Of a DNA stretch of 64,000 nt, positions 16,788 to 58,930 are shown piece after piece. Both the position numbers and the translations under genes were made by a program. The notes beneath the pieces are model-generated. The model ran no database searches and was not told where the DNA came from. It was given only the letters and a program-made list of their open reading frames with translations. How positions within the stretch are numbered: the stretch's first letter is position 1; the number at the start of each line of letters is the position of its first letter. Source of the stretch: Gemmatimonadota bacterium (GTDB taxonomy: Bacteria > Gemmatimonadota > Gemmatimonadetes > Palauibacterales > Palauibacteraceae); contig JAWOIN010000180.1 in assembly GCA_046484665.1 (NCBI GenBank), positions 333 to 64,332 on the forward strand, in the 5' to 3' direction.

Positions 16788-18746
16788 TCAGTCGCCCGTG
16801 CCCCACGACAGCGGCACGTCCGAGCCGCGCGGGGAGACCCGGACGTAGCCCTGCATCTCCTGGTGGAGGGCCGAGCAGAAGTCCGTGCAGTAGAACGGGT
16901 AGACGCCGGGGCGGTCGGCGACCCAGGTCAGGGTCCGCGTCTCGCCCGGCATCACGAGGAGTTCGGCGTTGTTCGCGCCCATCATCGCGAAGCCGTGCGG
17001 GACGTCCCAGTCCTGCTCGAGGTTCGTGACGTGGAAGTACACCGTGTCCCCGACCATCACGCCCTCGATGTTGTCCGGCGTGAAGTGGCTCCGGATCGTC
17101 GTCATGTAGATCCGGACCTTCCGGCCGTCGCGCACGACCTTCGCCTCCGCCTCGCTCGGCGTGAAGTGCGGGTTCGTGTTCCCGGACAGCTGGTACATCT
17201 TGACCTGCCTGTCCATGATGATGTCCGCCTTCAGCCCCTGCGCGTAGTGCGGCTCGCCCATGGTCGGGAAGTCGAGCAGCAGCCGCATCCTGTCGCCCGA
17301 GATGTCGATCAGCTGCGCCGCGTGGGCGAGCTCCGGGCCCGTCGGCAGGTAGCGGTCCTTCGTGATCTTGTTGAGCGCGACCAGGTACTTGCCCCACGGC
17401 TGCGACGAGTCGCCGCCCGGAATCATCAGGTGGCCGATCGAGTAGTAGACCGGGATCCGGTCCAGCACCTCCCAGGTCCCGAGCTTCCACTTCACGACCT
17501 CGGAGGAGATGAACACCGACGTGTAGGCGTTTCCCTTCCCGTCGAACTCGGTGTGGAGCGGTCCGAGGCCCGGGTCCTGGACCTCTCCGGCCAGGACGGC
17601 CTCGTACTCGAGGACCGGGATCCCCTCGATCACCGTCTCGTACCGCTCGTTCTCGATCGCCTCGAGCATCTTCGAGAACGAGTGGACCGGGATCACCGTG
17701 GCGAGCTTCCCGCCGCCGACGATGTACTCGCCGGTCGGGTCCACGTCGACGCCGTGCGGCGACTTCGGCGTGGGCAGGAAGTAGATCATGTCGGAGCAGT
17801 CGGCCGGCGTCAGCAGCCGGACCCCGCTCTTCATCTCGTGCCGCGCGACGCGGTCCTCGCCGACGTGGTTGTGGGCGTAGGGGGTGTTCCGCAACTCGCC
17901 CGCGCCGCCCGCGATGCACTCCTCCGCCCGCTGCCAGTTCACGGCCGCGATGAAGTCCTTGTCGTTCCGCGACGCCTGGATCTCGAGCAGGGTGTGCGCC
18001 TGCTCCGTGTTGTACGTCGTGAGGAACGCCCAGCCGTAGGACGGGCCGCGGCCCGAGTGGGAGAGGTCGTAGTTGTAGCCCGGCACCTCGATCTGGAACG
18101 CGATGTCCATCTCGCCCGGAAGGTCCGCGCGGATGAACGAGATCGTCCCCCGGAAGTTCTCCTTGTAGGAGTCGATCGAGACGTCCGCCTGCGGGATCGG
18201 AACGCTGAACCGGGTCGAGGCCACGAGGTATTTCGAGTCCGGCGTGATGAACGGCGAGGCGTGGTTCCCGGCCGAGTTCGGGATCTCGAGGATCTCGTCC
18301 GTCTCGAACGTCGTGAGGTCGATCCGGGCCACGCGCGGCGTGTTGTTGCCGTTGATGAAGATCCATCGCCCGTCGGGGACGCCGTCCGTCTGCGAGAGCT
18401 CGGGGTGATGCGAGTCGTCCCAGGGCACGAACCCGAAGCTCGTCATCAGCATCGGCTTCGTCTCTTCCGAGTAGCCCCACCCGTTCTCGGGGAACTGCGA
18501 GAACACGGGCACCGTCTTCAGCAGTCGGCCCGAGGGCAGCCCGTGCACGGTGAGGTTCCCGCTGAAGCCGCCCGACATGAACGCGTAGAACTCGTCGTAC
18601 TCGCCGGGCGCGACGTACACGGCCTGCGCGGCGTCGGCGGTGCCCGCGTCCGGCCCGGCGGTGCCGCACGCGAACGCGAACGCTCCGGCGAACGCGACCG
18701 CGACCGCGATCGCGCCGGCTCGGACCAGGGGGTCGATCCTGTTCAT
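16788..18746 (-). CDS. nosZ: Nitrous-oxide reductase NosZ, clade II (Sec-type signal)
   Basis: ATG at 18746 gives MNRIDPLVRAGAIAVAVAFAGAFAFAC, with no twin-arginine motif. Seven-bladed propeller region, then C-terminal CuA motif FYCTDFCSALHQEMQGY. Confidence 0.92.
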   Translation of the reverse strand: MNRIDPLVRAGAIAVAVAFAGAFAFACGTAGPDAGTADAAQAVYVAPGEYDEFYAFMSGGFSGNLTVHGLPSGRLLKTVPVFSQFPENGWGYSEETKPMLMTSFGFVPWDDSHHPELSQTDGVPDGRWIFINGNNTPRVARIDLTTFETDEILEIPNSAGNHASPFITPDSKYLVASTRFSVPIPQADVSIDSYKENFRGTISFIRADLPGEMDIAFQIEVPGYNYDLSHSGRGPSYGWAFLTTYNTEQAHTLLEIQASRNDKDFIAAVNWQRAEECIAGGAGELRNTPYAHNHVGEDRVARHEMKSGVRLLTPADCSDMIYFLPTPKSPHGVDVDPTGEYIVGGGKLATVIPVHSFSKMLEAIENERYETVIEGIPVLEYEAVLAGEVQDPGLGPLHTEFDGKGNAYTSVFISSEVVKWKLGTWEVLDRIPVYYSIGHLMIPGGDSSQPWGKYLVALNKITKDRYLPTGPELAHAAQLIDISGDRMRLLLDFPTMGEPHYAQGLKADIIMDRQVKMYQLSGNTNPHFTPSEAEAKVVRDGRKVRIYMTTIRSHFTPDNIEGVMVGDTVYFHVTNLEQDWDVPHGFAMMGANNAELLVMPGETRTLTWVADRPGVYPFYCTDFCSALHQEMQGYVRVSPRGSDVPLSWGTGD

Positions 18747-18778
18747 GGCTCCGCTCCCGTTACGGGTCAGGGGGGGTC

Positions 18779-19324
18779 TCATTCCGGCATCTCCGACGCG
18801 TCCGCGTCTTCCGCCTCATCCGCCTCCGCGGCGGCCTCGGCGGCTTCGTGCCGCAGGTACTCGAGGATGGCGCGGGCCTCTTCCCGCGTGAGATTCTGGT
18901 TGGGCATCGGCGTGTAGTACTGGGCGAGCATCGCCTTCACCTCGGGGTGGTCGCGGACCATGCCCTCGGGGTTCAGCATCATGTTCATCACGAACTCCGG
19001 AGCCCGGCGCTCCGTCACGTCGCCGAGCGGGGGGCCGACGTAGCGCTCGTCGAGCTTGTGGCAGGCCGAGCACTTCGACTGGAACGCCGCCTCGCCCCGC
19101 TCCGCGAGCGCCGCCTCGATCGGGCCGAGCTCGACTTCCGCGATGGGCCCGATCTTCCTCGCGAGCTCGGTCGCGTCTCCGCCTCCCGCGTCCGCCGTCG
19201 CGGGCGTATCGCCGGCGGCGCCCTCCGCCGCGTCTCCTCCCGCGCCCGCGTCCCCCCCGCAGGCCGCGAATCCGACCGCGGCGAGGAGGGCGAGTCCGGC
19301 GCGCGCGTTCCTCCGCTTCTTCAT
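18779..19324 (-). CDS. Monohaem c-type cytochrome, probable lipoprotein (NosC-like electron donor)
   Basis: MKKRRNARAGLALLAAVGFAAC signal/lipobox, a single CSACH haem motif, an acidic C-terminal tail, and position directly upstream of nosZ. Confidence 0.8.
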   Translation of the reverse strand: MKKRRNARAGLALLAAVGFAACGGDAGAGGDAAEGAAGDTPATADAGGGDATELARKIGPIAEVELGPIEAALAERGEAAFQSKCSACHKLDERYVGPPLGDVTERRAPEFVMNMMLNPEGMVRDHPEVKAMLAQYYTPMPNQNLTREEARAILEYLRHEAAEAAAEADEAEDADASEMPE

Positions 19325-20178: not shown

Positions 20179-20252
20179 TGGCCCCGTAGCTCAGGAGGAT
20201 AGAGCGTCGGATTCCTAATCCGAAGGTCGCTGGTTCGAGTCCAGCCGGGGTC
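20179..20252 (+). tRNA. tRNA-Arg (anticodon CCT)
   Basis: A 74-nt cloverleaf folded by hand: acceptor GGCCCCG/CGGGGTC, D arm GCTC-AGGAGGATA-GAGC, anticodon arm TCGGA-TTCCTAA-TCCGA, T arm GCTGG-TTCGAGT-CCAGC, discriminator A. No encoded CCA. Confidence 0.9.
20210..20252 (+). repeat. attL-like copy of the 43-bp direct repeat (3' half of the tRNA)
   Basis: ATTCCTAATCCGAAGGTCGCTGGTTCGAGTCCAGCCGGGGTCA is identical to 24011..24053. Confidence 0.85.
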
Positions 20253-20259
20253 ATGTCCT

Positions 20260-20431
20260 GCGCGAAGCGCAGATTCTCGTCGAGCCGTGGCGCAGGGAGT
20301 ACAATACGATCCGGCCGCACAGTTCCCTGGACTGACTACAGGTCGCCCGCTCCGCAGGCGATTCGGCCCGTCCCGACCTGGCTCAGACGACCCGTGCTGC
20401 ACGGGCCGGAACATGCCGCCAGATTAGCATA
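20260..20431 (+). pseudogene. C-terminal remnant of an IS3-family (rve/DDE) transposase
   Basis: REAQILVEPWRREYNTIRPHSSLD then a stop. After a 4-nt slip (TGAC) it continues YRSPAPQAIRP, matching the conserved W..YN..RPHSSLGYR.PAP tail of IS3 OrfB. It begins only 8 nt after the tRNA. Confidence 0.6.
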
Positions 20432-20482: not shown

Positions 20483-22051
20483 ATGTCCGGCATCTCCCAG
20501 TACTTCCACGGGGAAGAGGGCCTGGTGACCGAGCTGGCGTGGATGCCTGCCGGGGACCAGCTTGTGCTCCGCATGGGCCTGGCGGGCGACCCCCACCGCA
20601 CGGTGGCCATCGACTACGGCTCGGACATCGGCATCGATCCCCTCCTGCGCCCGGGGGGGAGAGCCATCTACCTGCGCGCCAACGCCTGGAGCGGCATCTG
20701 GACCGCGGGGGCCCACCGCTACCATCCCGAGACGGACGCGGCCATGGCGCGGGCCCTGGAGACCCGGAGCCGGATGGAGGAGTACGGGGGGCTGGTGGGG
20801 GAAGGAGGAGCCAACCTCCGGCGGTGGCTCCAGACTCTGGCCACGGACACGGGCCTCCCCTTGCGTCCGCTCCAGCCGGGCGACCGGGTGTCCGATACTC
20901 CCCTGGACGCCGCCGGGGTGTTCCTGAGCTACTCCAGCCAGAACGCCCTCCTGGCCCAGTGGCTCTACCGCCAGCTCCGCTCCGAGGGAAACGTGGGGGT
21001 CTGGTTCGACCAGGGGCACCCGGGGGAGCACCCCGGCCACGAGGAGGGGATCGCCGCATGGCTGCGCGCCTCGGTGCAGGAGTGCCAGATCCTGGCCCTC
21101 CTCCTCACCGGCCCTGCTCTGGACTCGCCCTGGGTGCGCCGGGAGATCGAGTACGCCGAGGAGAAGGCGGAGCGGGAGCCCGGCTTCCATTTCGTGGTCC
21201 TGAAGCTCGAGGATGTCCCGCTTCCCGCGCTGCGGGCACGGTCGCGGGTAGTGGACTGCGCCGGAATGAACGAGGGGGAGATTCTCGAGAACACCTACGC
21301 CGCGGTCTACCGCAGGGAGAGCCACCGGGAGTGGATGGCCGAGCAGGGCCGACGTGGGTGGCCCGGTCACGAGGAGCCCTCCGTCGGTTACGGGCACCTG
21401 GCGTCGGCAGGGGGCACGGCTCGGGCGCTTCGGTGGCGGCGGTCGGCAGGGGAGGTGGGCTGGGAGCTGGAGTACGAGAGCGCCGGGGCCACGAAGACGG
21501 TGCGGGGAACTGGACCGGGAGAGGCCGTGGATCCCGGAATCCGCCCCGGGGACCGGATTGGGTTCTTCCAGTTCGCCCTGCACACGCCCTTGTGGATGCG
21601 CTCGGACCAGCTCTCCCTCACTCCCCAGGAGGTGATGGCGGACTATCTCCGGGCGCTGGCCGCGCCGCCGGCATCCCCTCGCCTGCGCTCGCTTGTGGCT
21701 GGCAGCTACACTTTCTTCCTTTTCCTCACGGTGGCCCTGCTTGCCGCCAGGAACGACTTTGCGCCGGGGGTGCCGTGGTGGCTGATCGGGGCCTCGGCGC
21801 TGGCGCTGGTGGCGACCGGGAGCGTGTGGCTCGTCTCCCCCGAGTGGGGGCCCCGTTCTCCCCTGTGGAGGAGCGGTACGGGGCAGGCCATCGGCTGCCT
21901 GGCCACTCTGATCAACGGGGCGGCGGCCATGGCCGTGGTGGTGCGGGCGTTCGGCGGGTGGGACGCTCCCTGGACCCTGATCCTGGGGGTCTGGCTGGCG
22001 CTCCTGGCCGGGGCGCACCTCGCCACGGCCCGCATACGGGACGATAGCTGA
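20483..22051 (+). CDS. Multidomain TIR protein: unknown N-domain, TIR domain, unknown middle domain, four C-terminal TM helices
   Basis: TIR motifs GVFLSYSSQN (aa 145-154) and ILALLLTGPALDSPWVRREIEYA (aa 203-225), with the Glu of the S.W...E motif at codon 21143-21145. Hydrophobic helices lie at aa ~405-423, 430-451, 466-488 and 495-514. Confidence 0.8.
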   Translation: MSGISQYFHGEEGLVTELAWMPAGDQLVLRMGLAGDPHRTVAIDYGSDIGIDPLLRPGGRAIYLRANAWSGIWTAGAHRYHPETDAAMARALETRSRMEEYGGLVGEGGANLRRWLQTLATDTGLPLRPLQPGDRVSDTPLDAAGVFLSYSSQNALLAQWLYRQLRSEGNVGVWFDQGHPGEHPGHEEGIAAWLRASVQECQILALLLTGPALDSPWVRREIEYAEEKAEREPGFHFVVLKLEDVPLPALRARSRVVDCAGMNEGEILENTYAAVYRRESHREWMAEQGRRGWPGHEEPSVGYGHLASAGGTARALRWRRSAGEVGWELEYESAGATKTVRGTGPGEAVDPGIRPGDRIGFFQFALHTPLWMRSDQLSLTPQEVMADYLRALAAPPASPRLRSLVAGSYTFFLFLTVALLAARNDFAPGVPWWLIGASALALVATGSVWLVSPEWGPRSPLWRSGTGQAIGCLATLINGAAAMAVVVRAFGGWDAPWTLILGVWLALLAGAHLATARIRDDS

Positions 22052-22080
22052 GTAACCTGCGATCCCTCCGCCGTCCGGGT

Positions 22081-22114
22081 ACAGGGGACCGCCCTGGAGC
22101 GGGCTGGCCCCTGT
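22081..22114. terminator. Shared hairpin between the convergent island genes
   Basis: ACAGGGG-ACCGCCC...GGGCTGG-CCCCTGT imperfect stem within the 65-bp gap between the stops at 22051 and 22117. Confidence 0.5.
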
Positions 22115-22116
22115 CC

Positions 22117-23409
22117 TTACGCCTCGATCTCCTCCACGAAGGTCTTCACGGTGCCGAGGTGGCGGGTCATGGTGGGTCCGTCCATGGCGAGCCAGTGCAC
22201 CACGTACTCGTTCTCGCCGGTGATGAAGCGCACCAGGTACCCGTGGCTGATGCCCTGCTGGAAGTGGCACTCGTGGCACAGCGCCCCACCGCGGCGCAGC
22301 ATCTCCTGGCGGGTGATGGTGGCGCCCCGGGCGGCGAGGTTCTGCTCGGTAGCCGCCCGGAAGGTCGACTCGTCCGTGACGGTGGGCTCCGAGTACTGGA
22401 ACACCATGAAGTCCAGGCGCGAGCGCCGCCGGAAAATCCCTCCCAGCCCCGAGCCGCCGCTCTCGGGCGGCCTGAGGAGGGCCGCGAAGCTGGTGGGCTG
22501 CTCCGCGAGCACCCGACAGTGCCAGGCGGGCGGCGCGCGAAAGGAGAAGGGGGAGAGCCCGGGGCAGCTCGGCCGCGTTCGCGGGGAAAGCGGGATCTCC
22601 GCCGGCGGGCCCGGGGTCCCCGCAACCTGCGCGGAACCCCCTTGGGACCGCTCCCGGGCCAGGACCGCCGCAGGTCGCTCGGGCGAGGGCAGGGTCTCGC
22701 GTTCCAGCAGGAGGAAGCGGAGGAGGGCAAGGGCGGTGGAGGTGTCCGGTACCGTGGTGGCCGACCGGAGAGAGGGCTCCCCCGCCGCGCCCACCACGAC
22801 GGTCTTGAAGGCGTAGCCCGCCTCGGTCAGGTGGAGGATCTCCTCCTGGACGAACGGGGTGATCCGGCGGGTGTCCAGGACGATGAGCGCGACCGAGCGG
22901 GCGAACGACGACACCGCGTCCCGCCAATCCACCCCGCGGTCGATGCGGAAGCAGTCGCCGGGGATCTTCATATCGGTGGCGAGGATCCCCGTCTGGAGCA
23001 GGCTCACGGGGCGGAAGGGAAGCACTGCGTCGCGGATGGCGGCCTGGAGCGAGATCTGCTCCTCGCCCGAGCTCCCCAGGACCAGGATCGAGGCGGGGAC
23101 CCTCTCTCGGGTCCACTGGCCCAGGCCCGTCACGAGGAGGAAGAGTGCTGCCAGGGCCGGGATTGGCCCTGCATCTCCCGCCCACTGGGCTGCCAGCAGG
23201 GCCAGGCCACCTCCCAGCGCCACCCACTTGAGCCGCGCGAGGGTACGGATACGCCCGGAATACCGGCCCAGGGTCCGGGTGATGGCGAGGCACTCGCGGT
23301 AGCGGTCGGCTCCCAGGACGCGGCGCTGCCGCCGGACGCTCCAGGCGCTCCAACCCAGGAGGAAGACGGCCACGATGACAGCGATGACGGAAGCGACAAC
23401 TGCGATCAT
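22117..23409 (-). CDS. 3-TM membrane protein with a cytoplasmic alpha/beta domain and an unknown C-terminal domain (partner of the TIR protein)
   Basis: GGAGGA lies 4 nt before the ATG at 23409 (MIAVVASVIAVIVAVFLLGW). TM helices at aa 1-21, 61-76 and 83-98. Beta-alpha-beta pattern SILVLGSSGEE / VALIVLDTRRITPFVQEEILHL / KTVVVGA, then a Pro-rich linker and a C-terminal ~100 aa containing CHECH. The tracked N-terminal extension to 23793 is rejected. Confidence 0.65.
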   Translation of the reverse strand: MIAVVASVIAVIVAVFLLGWSAWSVRRQRRVLGADRYRECLAITRTLGRYSGRIRTLARLKWVALGGGLALLAAQWAGDAGPIPALAALFLLVTGLGQWTRERVPASILVLGSSGEEQISLQAAIRDAVLPFRPVSLLQTGILATDMKIPGDCFRIDRGVDWRDAVSSFARSVALIVLDTRRITPFVQEEILHLTEAGYAFKTVVVGAAGEPSLRSATTVPDTSTALALLRFLLLERETLPSPERPAAVLARERSQGGSAQVAGTPGPPAEIPLSPRTRPSCPGLSPFSFRAPPAWHCRVLAEQPTSFAALLRPPESGGSGLGGIFRRRSRLDFMVFQYSEPTVTDESTFRAATEQNLAARGATITRQEMLRRGGALCHECHFQQGISHGYLVRFITGENEYVVHWLAMDGPTMTRHLGTVKTFVEEIEA

Positions 23410-23789
23410 GGTTCCTCCGGGAGCCCGTCGGTGCCCGCGAGACCCTCCGGCTCCAAACGGGGGATCTCCGGAGGGGAGATGACCTGCTCCTTGACCCTCA
23501 CGTAACGTAAGGCTGCATCTTCGCATCGGCCATCGGGGGAGGGAGCCGCCACCCGGCGGCCTCCCCGCGACCGGGCAAGGAAAGGGGAGCAGGGGCATGA
23601 GCGGCATGACCTGACCCCCTGAAACGAGACCGCCTGCACAGTTAGGATTGCGGTCGGTGCGGTGCCCACCTCGTTCATGGATCAGCTTGGGGGGCACGAC
23701 AGGAATCCAGACCCTCAGCTTAGAGGCGGACCAAACCCGGGGGGAAACGTCACTAGAGGTCCGACTGCATATGCATCCGGCAGATGTTT

Positions 23790-23882
23790 TCAACGGATGA
23801 TCATGATCTTGCAGTGATGCAAATGTCGGTCGATCAGAGCGGCCACCATCACGTCGTCGCCCAGTCCGAGCATCACTTTGCC
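23790..23882 (-). pseudogene. C-terminal remnant of an IS21-family IstB-like ATPase
   Basis: GKVMLGLGDDVMVAALIDRHLHHCKIMIIR-stop resembles the conserved IstB tail (FGD.V.A.A.LDRL.HH......G). No upstream Walker motifs remain. Confidence 0.4.
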
Positions 23883-24010
23883 CGTACTTTGACTGAGATC
23901 AGAGAAGGGAGGGCACGCGAGAGAAGGAGACAGGTGCGGAAAGGGCCGGATCGGCCCTATCTTCCGCGACGTGAGAGAAGCCGGGTCACGCCGGAGAAGG
24001 CGGGCCTGGT

Positions 24011-24053
24011 ATTCCTAATCCGAAGGTCGCTGGTTCGAGTCCAGCCGGGGTCA
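24011..24053 (+). repeat. attR-like partial tRNA copy (43 bp)
   Basis: Identical to 20210..20252. It lacks the 5' half of the tRNA, so it is not a functional tRNA. Confidence 0.85.
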
Positions 24054-25689: not shown

Positions 25690-26403
25690 GTGGTGAGTCG
25701 CACGGAGCTCTGGGCCCAGGTCCGCATGGCGTGGTCCGTGCTCTCGGGCCAGGTCGCCCACGAGGTGCATCCGGGCCGCGAGCGGATCGAAGTCGCGCCG
25801 GCCCCGGACCTCGGTCCGGAGGCGGGAGGCGCGATCGCGGCCGAAGGGTTCGCCGAGGAGGCGCTTCCCTGGCTCGACGCCGTTCACGCGTTCACGCTCC
25901 GTCTCACGGGCGGCGACCGCGACGCGGCCGAGGACCTCGTGCAGGACACGTTCGTCCGGGCGCTCAGGTTCTGGCACACGTTCGAGCGGGGCACGCACGT
26001 GCGGTCCTGGCTGTTCACGATCTGTCGGAACACGTTCCTTCACGGGCGGGACAGCGCCCGATCGCGGAGGGAGAAGCCGTTGGCGGACATGGACCCGAGG
26101 GCCGAGGCGCTGGTCGGCATCCGGTCGCTGGGGCGGCCCGCGCCCGATCCGGAGGAGGAGTTCTTCTCCCGCCTCATTCACGACGAAGTCGTGGACGCGA
26201 TCGACGCGCTGCCCCCGGATTTCCGGGACGTACTCGTCCTCAGCGACCTGGGCGACCTCAACTACGCCGAGATCGCGACCGTCCTGGAGATCCCGGTGGG
26301 CACCGTGAAGAGCCGCCTGTTTCGCGCGCGGAGACAACTTCAGGAGCGGCTGCGGGAGTTCGCCGTTCGCGAGGGGTACGCAGACGTGCCGGAGGAAGCA
26401 TGA
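25690..26403 (+). CDS. ECF sigma factor (SigR-like)
   Basis: Region 2 (EDLVQDTFVRALRFWHTF, RSWLFTICRN) and region 4 (LNYAEIATVLEIPVGTVKSRLFRARRQL) motifs. Its stop overlaps the anti-sigma ATG. The start is uncertain (25690 GTG or 25726 ATG). Confidence 0.85.
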   Translation: MVSRTELWAQVRMAWSVLSGQVAHEVHPGRERIEVAPAPDLGPEAGGAIAAEGFAEEALPWLDAVHAFTLRLTGGDRDAAEDLVQDTFVRALRFWHTFERGTHVRSWLFTICRNTFLHGRDSARSRREKPLADMDPRAEALVGIRSLGRPAPDPEEEFFSRLIHDEVVDAIDALPPDFRDVLVLSDLGDLNYAEIATVLEIPVGTVKSRLFRARRQLQERLREFAVREGYADVPEEA

Positions 26404-26675
26404 TCCGAAGAGCGATGGGAATGATCTCCTGCGACGAGGCGATGCGCCGTCTCTGGGAGTTCCTCGACGCGGAGCTCGGTCCCGAGGAGGAGGCCGAGGT
26501 GCAGCGGCATCTCGAGGTCTGCGAGAAGTGCTATCCGCAGTACGACTTCCAGCGGGCGTACTTCAGGTTCATGCATCGGGTCGCGGAAGGGGAGCGCGCG
26601 ACGCCCGCGTTTCGCCGTCGCCTGTTCCGCAGGCTGCTCGAGGCGCAATCGGCGGAGGAGGACCGGAATGAGTGA
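26400..26675 (+). CDS. Cytoplasmic zinc-binding (ZAS, RsrA-like) anti-sigma factor
   Basis: 91 aa, no TM helix. Cys near the N-terminus (MISCDEA) plus the H-x3-C-x2-C motif (HLEVCEKC). ATGA overlap with the sigma gene. Confidence 0.8.
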   Translation: MIRRAMGMISCDEAMRRLWEFLDAELGPEEEAEVQRHLEVCEKCYPQYDFQRAYFRFMHRVAEGERATPAFRRRLFRRLLEAQSAEEDRNE

Positions 26676-57611: not shown

Positions 57612-58930
57612 TCCTCCACCCCGCTTCCGGTGCGGGTCAGCGCGTCGATCTCCGCCAGCGCCTGCCGGTGCTCGGCGGCGAGGCGGAGCCTCTCGATTTC
57701 GTATCGGTTCACGGCCAGCTGGCTTTCGATCAGGGTCGTGGCCTCGAGCTGGCCCACGCGGTACGCCCCGAGGGCCGAGGAGACGGCGGCCTCCGCCTGC
57801 GGCAGGATGGACGTCCGGTACAGTCGCTCGAGCTCGGCCGCCCGTTCCGCGGCGGCCCGGAGGTCGGCGAGCCGGGCCCAGGTCTCGTAGTAGAGGTCGA
57901 GCGCGCGGGCCTCCGCCGCTGCCTGCTCCGCCTCCGCCTCGCGCCGCATCGGGAGCTCGCGCGAGCCCGCGAACAGGGGAAGCCGGAACCCGACCATCAC
58001 GGAGCCCATGTCGTCGAACTCCGGCCTCTGCCCGTAGCTCAGGCCCAGCGTCAGATCGGGATAGAGCTGGCGCCGGGCGAGCCGCCGGGCCGCTTCCGCC
58101 GCCCGCGTCCTCTCCCGGGCCGCCGCGAGCGCGGGCCGGCCGGCCGCCGCCGTGGCCATCAGCGAGTCGAGCGGCGGCAGCCCGGGCTCCGCGGGCGGAA
58201 GCTCGAGCGTCCCCACCGGATCGGAGCCGGGCCGTCCCATCAGGGCGTTGAGGCGCGCCGCCTGGCCGACGCGCCGCATGCGCGCCGCCGTCACGTCGGC
58301 GCGCATGCGGGCGACGGCCACCTGCGCCTGCAGCACGTCCTGCTGGAGGCCCTGCCCCACCCTATATCGCGCCTCGGTGATCTCCTCGATGTCGTCCAGA
58401 AGGTGCAGCGTCTCCTCCATCACGTCGATCGAGCGGTCGAGCGCGGCGAGGCCGTAGTAGAGCGAGAGCGCCCGGGCGACGAGACGCGCCTCGACTTCGT
58501 CGGCGTCCAGGGCCGCCGCGTTCGAGACGTGCTCGGCCCGTTCCTCCGCGAAGCCGAGCTTTCCGGGCCAGCGGAAGGTCTGGATGAGCCCCACGACGTT
58601 CATCGTCATGCGCTCGTCCGTGGCGAAGCCGTCGAGCGGACGGTTCATGAGGCCGAGCTGCAGCGTCGGATCGGGCCACGCCCCGGCCGGCGACACCCTC
58701 TCCGCGGCGGCCGCGGCCGCGAGCCGGGATGCCCGGACCGCGGGGTTGGCCTCGAGGACGCCGCGAACGACCTCGGCGACGCGCAGCGTGTCGCCCGTCG
58801 CCGGGGCCACGGGCTCCTGTCCCGCGACGGCAGGAGCGCCGGTCGCGAGAGCGACGAGGGCCGTGGTGAGACGGATCCTTCGATGTACGGTCACGGGGAC
58901 TTCCCCCCTGGATTCCGGTTCCCTCCGCAT
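57608..58930 (-). CDS. TolC-family outer-membrane efflux protein (CusC-like)
   Basis: Duplicated OEP repeats across 440+ aa, first gene of the CBA operon. The start is uncertain (ATG at 58930 or 58963, or a downstream GTG). Confidence 0.8.
   Translation of the reverse strand: MRREPESRGEVPVTVHRRIRLTTALVALATGAPAVAGQEPVAPATGDTLRVAEVVRGVLEANPAVRASRLAAAAAAERVSPAGAWPDPTLQLGLMNRPLDGFATDERMTMNVVGLIQTFRWPGKLGFAEERAEHVSNAAALDADEVEARLVARALSLYYGLAALDRSIDVMEETLHLLDDIEEITEARYRVGQGLQQDVLQAQVAVARMRADVTAARMRRVGQAARLNALMGRPGSDPVGTLELPPAEPGLPPLDSLMATAAAGRPALAAARERTRAAEAARRLARRQLYPDLTLGLSYGQRPEFDDMGSVMVGFRLPLFAGSRELPMRREAEAEQAAAEARALDLYYETWARLADLRAAAERAAELERLYRTSILPQAEAAVSSALGAYRVGQLEATTLIESQLAVNRYEIERLRLAAEHRQALAEIDALTRTGSGVEE

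Follow-up and report, generated by a model that had tools for sequence, protein, structure and literature searches.

The window analysed here, i.e. the whole stretch of 64,000 nucleotides from contig JAWOIN010000180.1 of a Gemmatimonadota bacterium (assembly GCA_046484665.1), carries at a tRNA-Arg(CCT) gene a small islet with two genes of interest: gene 1 (20483..22051, + strand), coding for a membrane-anchored TIR protein of 522 amino acids (aa), and gene 2 (22117..23409, - strand), coding for a membrane protein of 430 aa. The first-pass annotation had proposed this convergent pair, with its 65-bp spacer, as a new two-gene TIR-based module. That proposal is not supported by the comparison of homologous loci, because the two families never co-occur across the loci sampled. 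The two genes are probably independent cargo of a decayed islet at tRNA-Arg(CCT), and not a co-evolved module. Gene 1 is most likely a rare, self-contained, membrane-anchored ThsB-like TIR protein, and gene 2 is most likely a membrane protein unrelated to gene 1, acting independently of TIR proteins.

The genomic contexts of both families were compared on 3 independent loci carrying gene 1 homologs (L001, taken from a 207-kb contig, L008 and L009), on 6 independent loci carrying close gene 2 relatives (L002 and L003, which are the same; L004, L010 and L011, also the same, with 99% identity; L005; L006; L007; and L012) and on 2 loci carrying distant ones (L013 and L014/L015). As for P0025 and P0021, their contexts are 1.6-kb contigs with no useful neighbours. 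When both proteins were searched by tblastn against all fetched loci, gene 1 relatives were found in L001, L008 and L009 only, and gene 2 relatives only in L002/L003, L004/L010/L011, L005, L006, L007, L012 and L013. The two families thus occur together in 0/3 gene 1 loci and in 0/6 close and 0/2 distant gene 2 loci. Lack of co-conservation had been named beforehand as an outcome contradicting the proposed module, and none of the homologs proved to be co-conserved. Moreover, the called-gene tables of the 6 close and 2 distant loci list no TIR family and no cyclase beside the gene 2 relatives; a TIR-dependent effector would be expected beside TIR genes, and its absence from such positions counts against a module. 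The convergent orientation points the same way, since it leaves gene 1 and gene 2 without an operon and without co-transcription. Concerning other possible partners, an all-against-all comparison of open reading frames (ORFs), together with Pfam scans of the neighbours, showed no neighbour conserved among the gene 1 homologs at their 3 loci and no alternative conserved partner of gene 2 beyond the synteny of close contigs.

The locus was also compared with the named TIR-dependent systems. For Thoeris, 11 types have been named and ca. 29 are predicted, and transmembrane effectors of unknown fold are found in many of them (bioRxiv 10.64898/2025.12.03.692087). Where a Thoeris TIR gene shares its operon with a neighbouring effector gene, gene 1 faces a convergent gene 2 and no other intact gene of the islet; gene 2 matches, in Pfam, NCBIfam and PADLOC, none of the known effector domains (SLOG-SIR2, Macro, caspase-like, DUF2270, DUF6650, SLATT, CMP hydrolase-TPR and others); and co-occurrence of TIR protein and effector across genomes is zero in the sampled loci. 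With respect to CBASS and Pycsar, the islet holds no cyclase gene, and no SAVED, STING or cNMP match was found by Pfam. Two statements of the first-pass annotation are upheld by these searches, namely that the usual partner domains are missing (no SAVED, STING, Macro or SLOG match and no cyclase gene in the islet) and that the pair resembles no named defence system, as PADLOC, NCBIfam and Pfam assign neither of the proteins nor the pair.

Both ORFs were found in the ORF listing tail to tail, at the positions and spacing first described. The G+C content at third codon positions (GC3) is 0.89 for gene 1 and 0.90 for gene 2, like that of the flanking genes for nosZ, a cytochrome c, a helix-turn-helix (HTH) regulator and an extracytoplasmic function (ECF) sigma factor, in a window that has ca. 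70% G+C throughout. The start of gene 1 is backed by the N-termini of its homologs, which open with M(S/A)GISQYYHGE. For gene 2, the ATG at 23409 that had been proposed as start, giving 430 aa, was confirmed: it is preceded by a GGAGGA Shine-Dalgarno sequence, and 10/10 homologs begin at the equivalent Met before the first transmembrane helix. A longer ORF of 558 aa, starting from a TTG at 23793 (22117..23793), was rejected on the basis of the same homolog starts and of the GGAGGA before 23409. The host-like GC3 and the supported starts indicate that both ORFs are real, expressed-type coding sequences of host composition.

Gene 1 has 4 homologs, at 36-52% identity, and its AlphaFold2 model, built on a 5-sequence alignment, is of moderate confidence, with a mean predicted local distance difference test (pLDDT) score of 62.9. 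Pfam, the model and hydropathy agree with the four-part layout initially described, in which the TIR domain lies between an N-terminal and a beta-rich middle domain and four transmembrane helices come last. In the model, the N-terminal domain (aa 1-125; 20483..20857) contains a beta-sheet (12-75) and, after it, two long helices (83-123); its pLDDT values are 60-86, and it is kept in P0002, P0003, P0005 and the L008 homolog. The beta-rich juxtamembrane domain (aa ca. 300-395; 21380..21667) comprises strands between 308 and 373 and a C-terminal helix (381-393), with a pLDDT of about 80; it is the most conserved part of gene 1 (GIRPGDRIGFF...PLWMRSD) and holds most of the invariant columns of alignment A2. 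For both of these domains, Pfam scans were empty even at E<=10.

The TIR domain (aa 146-260; 20918..21262) is matched by Pfam PF13676 TIR_2 (E=1.7e-14, 54.8 bits vs. a cut-off of 28), with ThsB_TIR as a weak secondary match; in the model, it spans residues 146-275, with a local pLDDT of 50-86. Among the PADLOC models, matches were at the level of the TIR domain only, i.e. weak matches to ThsB models and a match to SAVED_TIR confined to its TIR part (profile positions 13-108 of 404). The ThsB models give the best defence-model matches for the family as a whole, with values of 1.5e-8 for P0005 and 1e-6 for P0002. Nothing significant was found for gene 1 in NCBIfam (June 2026), and PHROGs gave no match for either gene 1 or gene 2. 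A Foldseek search of the PDB with the whole chain retrieved the TIR domains of TLR10, RPS4/RRS1, L6, MyD88, the SPARTA TIR-APAZ protein and EcThsB, with TM-scores on the target of 0.5-0.65. Matches to ExoVII and to a glucosidase in the same search were discarded as meaningless, with a root-mean-square deviation of ca. 20 A.

The Glu whose codon lies at 21143..21145, pointed out in the first-pass annotation, is Glu221 in the motif SPWVRREIEYA. It is kept in every gene 1 homolog that covers the region and aligns with RPWVKYEIERA of EcThsB (PDB 8wcf). This W-x-x-x-E position corresponds to that of the catalytic Glu of enzymatic TIRs. The TIR domain of gene 1 is genuine, and a Glu occupies its catalytic position.

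The C-terminal membrane region (aa ca. 399-517; 21677..22033) has four transmembrane helices, at about 404-422, 430-452, 469-487 and 494-516, for which hydropathy and model agree. Hydropathy and the AlphaFold2 models likewise confirm that both proteins of the islet are membrane-embedded. Among the homologs, this region of gene 1 can be aligned to P0004 only; transmembrane helices are present in P0002 and P0003, where they cannot be aligned, and they are absent from P0005. We read the segment as an anchor, not as an effector, because two homologs have it in a form that cannot be aligned and a third lacks it, the remaining three domains being retained.

The gene 1 family is very rare, with 4 other clusters (5 in total) among 5.8 billion, none of which is informatively named. 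No relatives of gene 1 or gene 2 were found in the 185,579 GTDB species-representative genomes scanned, and the IMG/VR scan gave no relative of gene 1. At locus L001, the gene of P0005 lies among housekeeping genes, with those for VKOR, a MarR regulator, a glyoxalase and leuCD-type proteins around it and no mobile-element or defence marker among these neighbours. The homolog of L008 is next to an Lcl_C-like gene and that of L009 next to an unrelated small ORF with four transmembrane helices. In L008 (67-1606; GCA_012974725.1), the gene 1 homolog is contained in two overlapping ORFs, of 214 and 309 aa, which are jointly full-length; this split is a frameshift, caused by either pseudogenisation or an assembly error. 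No flanking tRNA was found at any homolog locus, and the sole ARAGORN call was inside a large coding gene of L005.

This distribution bears on the possibility that gene 1 is not an immune gene at all, and instead codes for a membrane-associated TIR protein with another task, for example as a scaffold, as an adaptor or as an enzyme of envelope physiology that processes NAD+ or nucleotides, and is merely carried on the islet. The setting of P0005, the lack of viral relatives in IMG/VR and of a PADLOC system, and the mere 5 clusters would all fit such a role. Nevertheless, we regard it as unlikely: Glu-retaining bacterial TIRs, where tested, are mostly NADase or signal-producing immune proteins, and single-gene and transmembrane-associated TIRs of Escherichia coli are among the tested immune cases (PMC11350192). 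In addition, the patchy distribution, the islet with its insertion sequence (IS) remnants and the frameshifted copy of L008 fit an accessory, conflict-type gene.

Compared with ThsB of Thoeris types I-XI, the TIR domain of gene 1 has the same type of motif (PWV..EIE.A). However, ThsB is usually a short, soluble protein whose gene shares an operon with that of a signal-responsive effector, whereas gene 1 is 522 aa long, with two extra domains, four transmembrane helices and no co-directional partner. In E. coli, the TIR-I to TIR-IX proteins defend either alone or with one partner; some of these systems include transmembrane domains, and their TIR active-site residues are required (PMC11350192). 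Compared by description, gene 1 most plausibly belongs with such single- or two-gene TIR systems, although, unlike them, its N-terminal and middle domains match no family and it has four homologs only. If it acts in this way, its N-terminal and juxtamembrane beta domains might have a sensing or autoinhibitory function; phage infection, a disturbance of the membrane or a similar trigger would lead the membrane-confined TIR domains to self-associate; and these would then cleave NAD+ or make an ADP-ribose (ADPR)-derived product, leading to growth arrest.

Gene 2 has 10 homologs at 41-58% identity, and its AlphaFold2 model, built on a 102-sequence alignment, has a mean pLDDT of 91.7 and a predicted TM-score (pTM) of 0.70. 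Its layout as first described, with three transmembrane helices, a beta-alpha-beta segment, a Pro-rich linker and a C-terminal domain, is reproduced by the model. The CHECH sequence singled out in the C-terminal domain does not hold as a motif: among the relatives, H379 is found in 20/26, E380 in 26/26 and C381 in 21/29, and the first Cys is a Ser in most of them. CHECH as a metal site was therefore rejected, as it is not conserved beyond H-E-C. The N-terminal membrane region (aa 1-102; 23104..23409) was delimited by hydropathy and by model helices at 2-32, 34-48, 52-77 and 82-102, and is described as having three transmembrane helices. The first of these is followed by a basic RRQRRV sequence which, by the positive-inside rule, suggests that the loop after it and the C-terminal domains are cytoplasmic.

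The central domain of gene 2 (aa 105-236; 22702..23097) is flavodoxin-like in the model, in which it covers residues 106-236. Over 102 superfamily sequences, it shows an invariant Glu190 (91/91; codon 22840-22842) and strong conservation of R155 (88/90), D179 (89/90) and W162 (95/99), R133, R181 and K202 being mostly conserved. The pattern of E190, R155, D179 and W162 is typical of an active site or small-ligand pocket and suggests an enzyme or a ligand site. Foldseek gave weak matches of flavodoxin type for this domain, with a REC domain ranked best and DNPH1 at rank 50.

These data raise the question of whether gene 2, although divergent and anchored in the membrane, should itself be counted in the TIR/nucleoside-2-deoxyribosyltransferase (NDT)-like fold class, with E190 as catalytic residue, in which case the islet would hold two independent TIR-class enzymes. 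We see this as a minor but real possibility. Comparison of the two family profiles by hhalign gives a single match, which aligns residues 105-197 of gene 2 with residues 142-228 of the gene 1 TIR domain, pairing ILVLGSS with VFLSYSS and TPFVQEEI with SPWVRREI, so that E190, the invariant residue, falls on E221; DNPH1 was matched by Foldseek with a probability of 0.98 and a TM-score on the target of 0.52, and DNPH1, MilB and NDT are also among the Foldseek matches of gene 1. Yet this alignment falls short of significance in hhalign (probability 0.6%, E=0.09), there is no TIR, NDT or SLOG match in Pfam at E<=10, and flavodoxin-like folds are very common, as the best rank of the REC domain illustrates.

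The C-terminal domain of gene 2 (aa ca. 296-430; 22120..22524) follows the Pro-rich linker, a low-confidence part of the model, and is modelled as a compact alpha/beta domain (297-426) with a pLDDT above 90. Against the PDB, its best Foldseek matches are PsbP/CyanoP proteins (E ca. 1e-5; TM-score on the target up to 0.67); 18 PDB matches were obtained at E<=1e-3, all of them PsbP-family proteins of photosystem II or NDH complexes. EagT6, PA0094, DcrB and Mog1 match at weaker E-values, the set as a whole spanning from ca. 1e-5 to 3e-3, and the top matches in BFVD are phage 'lipoproteins' of PsbP-like fold. Based on these structural comparisons of the model, the domain is assigned to a predicted PsbP/Mog1/DUF1795 fold. 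Gene 2 has no match in Pfam, NCBIfam (June 2026) or PADLOC. Per-domain Pfam scans of both cytoplasmic domains were empty at E<=10, with neither PF01789 PsbP, PF08786 DcrB nor DUF1795 found, and a sequence search of the PDB with the gene 2 profile returned noise only (designed proteins and transporters, E>0.5). Thus, while the domain resembles the proteins of this fold (CyanoP, the type VI secretion system chaperones EagT6 and PA0094, and DcrB) in structure, with TM-scores of 0.46-0.67, it differs from them in having no detectable sequence similarity and in being predicted as cytoplasmic and membrane-tethered by a Pro-rich linker, whereas they are soluble, periplasmic or lumenal.

A profile search of 1.84 billion representatives with gene 2 retrieved 637 proteins at E<=1e-3, including 191 at E<=1e-10, and a further search with the 102-sequence profile added one protein, P0133. 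The superfamily is made of two separable modules, an N-module (profile positions ca. 1-275), often found as a stand-alone protein of ca. 265 aa, and a C-module (ca. 295-443), found alone or behind other N-termini. Among the relatives sampled, TPR or HEAT repeats occur in a few, and a WD40 propeller in a single protein with the C-module. The PsbP-like domain, with a SHEC motif and an invariant Glu, was seen behind unrelated N-terminal regions in P0029, P0045, P0060, P0064, P0086 and others; it is a mobile domain without a Pfam model. In functional terms, the core of gene 2, i.e. its three transmembrane helices and cytoplasmic flavodoxin-like domain, could constitute an enzyme or a small-ligand site, and the PsbP-fold domain, absent in some relatives, could be an exchangeable protein-interaction module.

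The sampled members of this superfamily sit among housekeeping genes. Their neighbours vary between loci and include NfeD and Band_7 genes in L002, a ClpB-like AAA+ gene and YbjN in both L004 and L006, a giant VWA/LVIVD protein in L005 and an ArsR-type regulator in L007; for the distant relatives, they are genes for PEP-utilising enzymes in L013 and for ribosomal proteins L35 and L20 in L014. In L004 (3334-8046), and in the same order in L006 and L011, an 81-aa ORF, the ClpB-like AAA+ ATPase (758 aa, matching the PADLOC candidate PDC-M37B), YbjN (200 aa) and, in last position, the gene 2 homolog form a co-directional string, with genes for a RelA_SpoT+RyR protein (matching PADLOC PDC-S33) and a NUDIX protein divergently upstream. 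Such an arrangement may have a functional meaning for gene 2, or may simply reflect the synteny of related genomes.

Gene 2 can also be set against the transmembrane effectors of Thoeris (ThsC, Macro-TM; ThsF, DUF2270; ThsG, DUF6650; ThsH, SLATT). It shares with them N-terminal transmembrane helices and a basic cytoplasmic domain, but it matches none of their families and its sampled relatives are not beside a TIR gene. On this ground one could conceive of the pair as a newly assembled, membrane-embedded Thoeris-like system, in which gene 1 would sense infection at the membrane and make an ADPR-derived signal, and in which this signal would bind the basic flavodoxin-like pocket of gene 2, which would then oligomerise and disrupt the membrane. 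The ThsB-like TIR domain with its retained Glu, the conserved R133, R155, R181 and K202 in the cytoplasmic domain of a transmembrane protein, the joint presence of both genes as sole intact cargo of one islet, and the fact that many Thoeris effectors, validated or predicted, are transmembrane proteins of unknown fold encoded beside TIR clusters that swap effectors (bioRxiv 10.64898/2025.12.03.692087) are all compatible with it. We nevertheless hold such a system to be very unlikely, given that none of the 6 close and 2 distant gene 2 loci adjoins a TIR gene or a cyclase, that no gene 2 relative is found in the 3 gene 1 loci, that the two genes are convergent, that gene 2 has no DUF2270, DUF6650, SLATT, Macro or SLOG match in Pfam, NCBIfam or PADLOC, and that housekeeping genes surround the sampled members of its large superfamily. 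Should it be true against these odds, the gene 2 superfamily would represent an unrecognised class of membrane effectors or enzymes with a TIR/NDT-like fold.

Several observations weigh against regarding gene 1 and gene 2 as independent cargo, with a defence role for gene 1. Few contexts could be compared (3 gene 1 loci, 6 close and 2 distant gene 2 loci), and L008, L009 and L012 are short. One and the same cluster of Thoeris TIRs may be found with different effectors (bioRxiv 10.64898/2025.12.03.692087), so that a one-off pairing is conceivable from the side of gene 1. Both genes lie 65 bp apart as the sole intact cargo of a single islet, and gene 2 is laid out like an effector, combining transmembrane helices with a cytoplasmic domain that has abundant conserved Arg and Lys. 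As for defence, P0005 lies outside any defence island and the flanks of the islet hold no known defence gene; the role itself is deduced for a protein whose model is moderate (pLDDT 62.9) and whose accessory domains have no family.

The islet is bounded on its left by the tRNA-Arg(CCT) gene (20179..20254, + strand), called by ARAGORN and by Rfam RF00005 (69.1 bits). The 43 nt at the 3' end of this tRNA (20211-20253, + strand) form the left copy of a direct repeat of family D1, whose right copy (24011..24053, + strand), an exact 43-nt match to the tRNA-Arg 3' end, marks the right boundary. The repeat family lists this right copy as 24004-24053, i.e. 50 nt at 94% identity with a spacing of 3800; on reading both copies, 43 nt are exact. 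Rfam called no tRNA at the right copy (24011..24053). Directly abutting the tRNA, a C-terminal remnant of an IS3/IS481-type transposase, LREAQILVEPWRREYNTIRPHSSLD followed by a stop codon (20258..20335, + strand), consists of the last 25 codons and matches positions 39-63 of the 67 in Pfam rve_3 (E=1.2e-7, 31.8 bits vs. a cut-off of 26.5). Towards the other end, translation gives what is probably the C-terminal remainder of an IS21 helper protein of IstB type (23796..23864, - strand), ending in DDVMVAALIDRHLHHCKIMIIR and a stop codon; its assignment is weak, as the match to Pfam IstB_IS21 (E=0.0022, 18 bits) is under the cut-off of 24.1.

Neither an integrase nor an excisionase was found inside the islet by ORF listing and Pfam, which gave only the rve_3 tail and short shadow ORFs, and apart from gene 1 and gene 2 the ORF listing shows no credible intact ORF. 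The statement that these are the only intact genes of a tRNA-Arg islet is thus well founded, with the tRNA and its 43-nt repeat as boundaries. The islet shares with tRNA-integrated islands a tRNA at its end, the repeat of the tRNA 3' end, accessory genes and IS remnants; it differs from them by the lack of integrase and excisionase, by its size of 3.8 kb and by its host-like GC3. For these three reasons, it is an old, decayed and immobile remnant of an integrative element at tRNA-Arg(CCT). Upstream of gene 2, a region of ca. 600 bp (23410-24003), within which the IstB-like tail is found, has a G+C content of 0.63, lower than its surroundings. It contains no credible ORF besides this tail and no Rfam RNA family, and presumably represents decayed DNA of the element, in which the promoter of gene 2 now lies.

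A G+C-rich hairpin (22072..22121, no strand assigned) lies in the 65-bp spacer and slightly overlaps, by a few bases, gene 2 at its 3' end. The two genes had been described as sharing this hairpin, which does not stand as a feature: its folding energy is -32 kcal/mol, dinucleotide shuffles have a mean of -30.8 (z=-0.40), and 60/200 shuffles fold equally well or better. It has no T-run, and no terminator was called there. A bidirectional terminator in the spacer was accordingly rejected, and the hairpin is no more than is expected by chance in a sequence of 70% G+C.

Elsewhere in the window, the gene of a nitrous-oxide reductase (nos_propeller, E=1.7e-35) and, after it, that of a c-type cytochrome are found at 16788-19324 (- strand), directly upstream of the HTH regulator and tRNA-Arg. 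The host is a high-G+C, denitrifier-type organism. Just outside the islet, at 25690-26675 (+ strand), the gene of an ECF sigma factor (Sigma70_r2 and r4) precedes a short ORF that looks like an anti-sigma factor, its N-terminus being rich in Cys and His; the two are unrelated to gene 1 and gene 2. Finally, at 58704-58803 (- strand), ARAGORN called a 100-nt 'tRNA-Ala(CGC)' with its anticodon at position 39, below the Rfam gathering score; the call is probably either spurious or due to a tRNA of unusual or interrupted form.

A defence module of two genes, if new, would be of importance, but the evidence does not support one. If gene 1 works as a single-protein defence, it would represent a new architecture, in which a ThsB-like TIR domain is set between two unassigned domains on a four-helix anchor, in a high-G+C lineage absent from the species-representative collection scanned. 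As for gene 2, it exposes a large family of 637 representative clusters with no match in Pfam, NCBIfam, PADLOC or PHROGs, and this family, with its three transmembrane helices, its flavodoxin-like core and its variable PsbP-fold, TPR and HEAT additions, is worth a proper domain definition.

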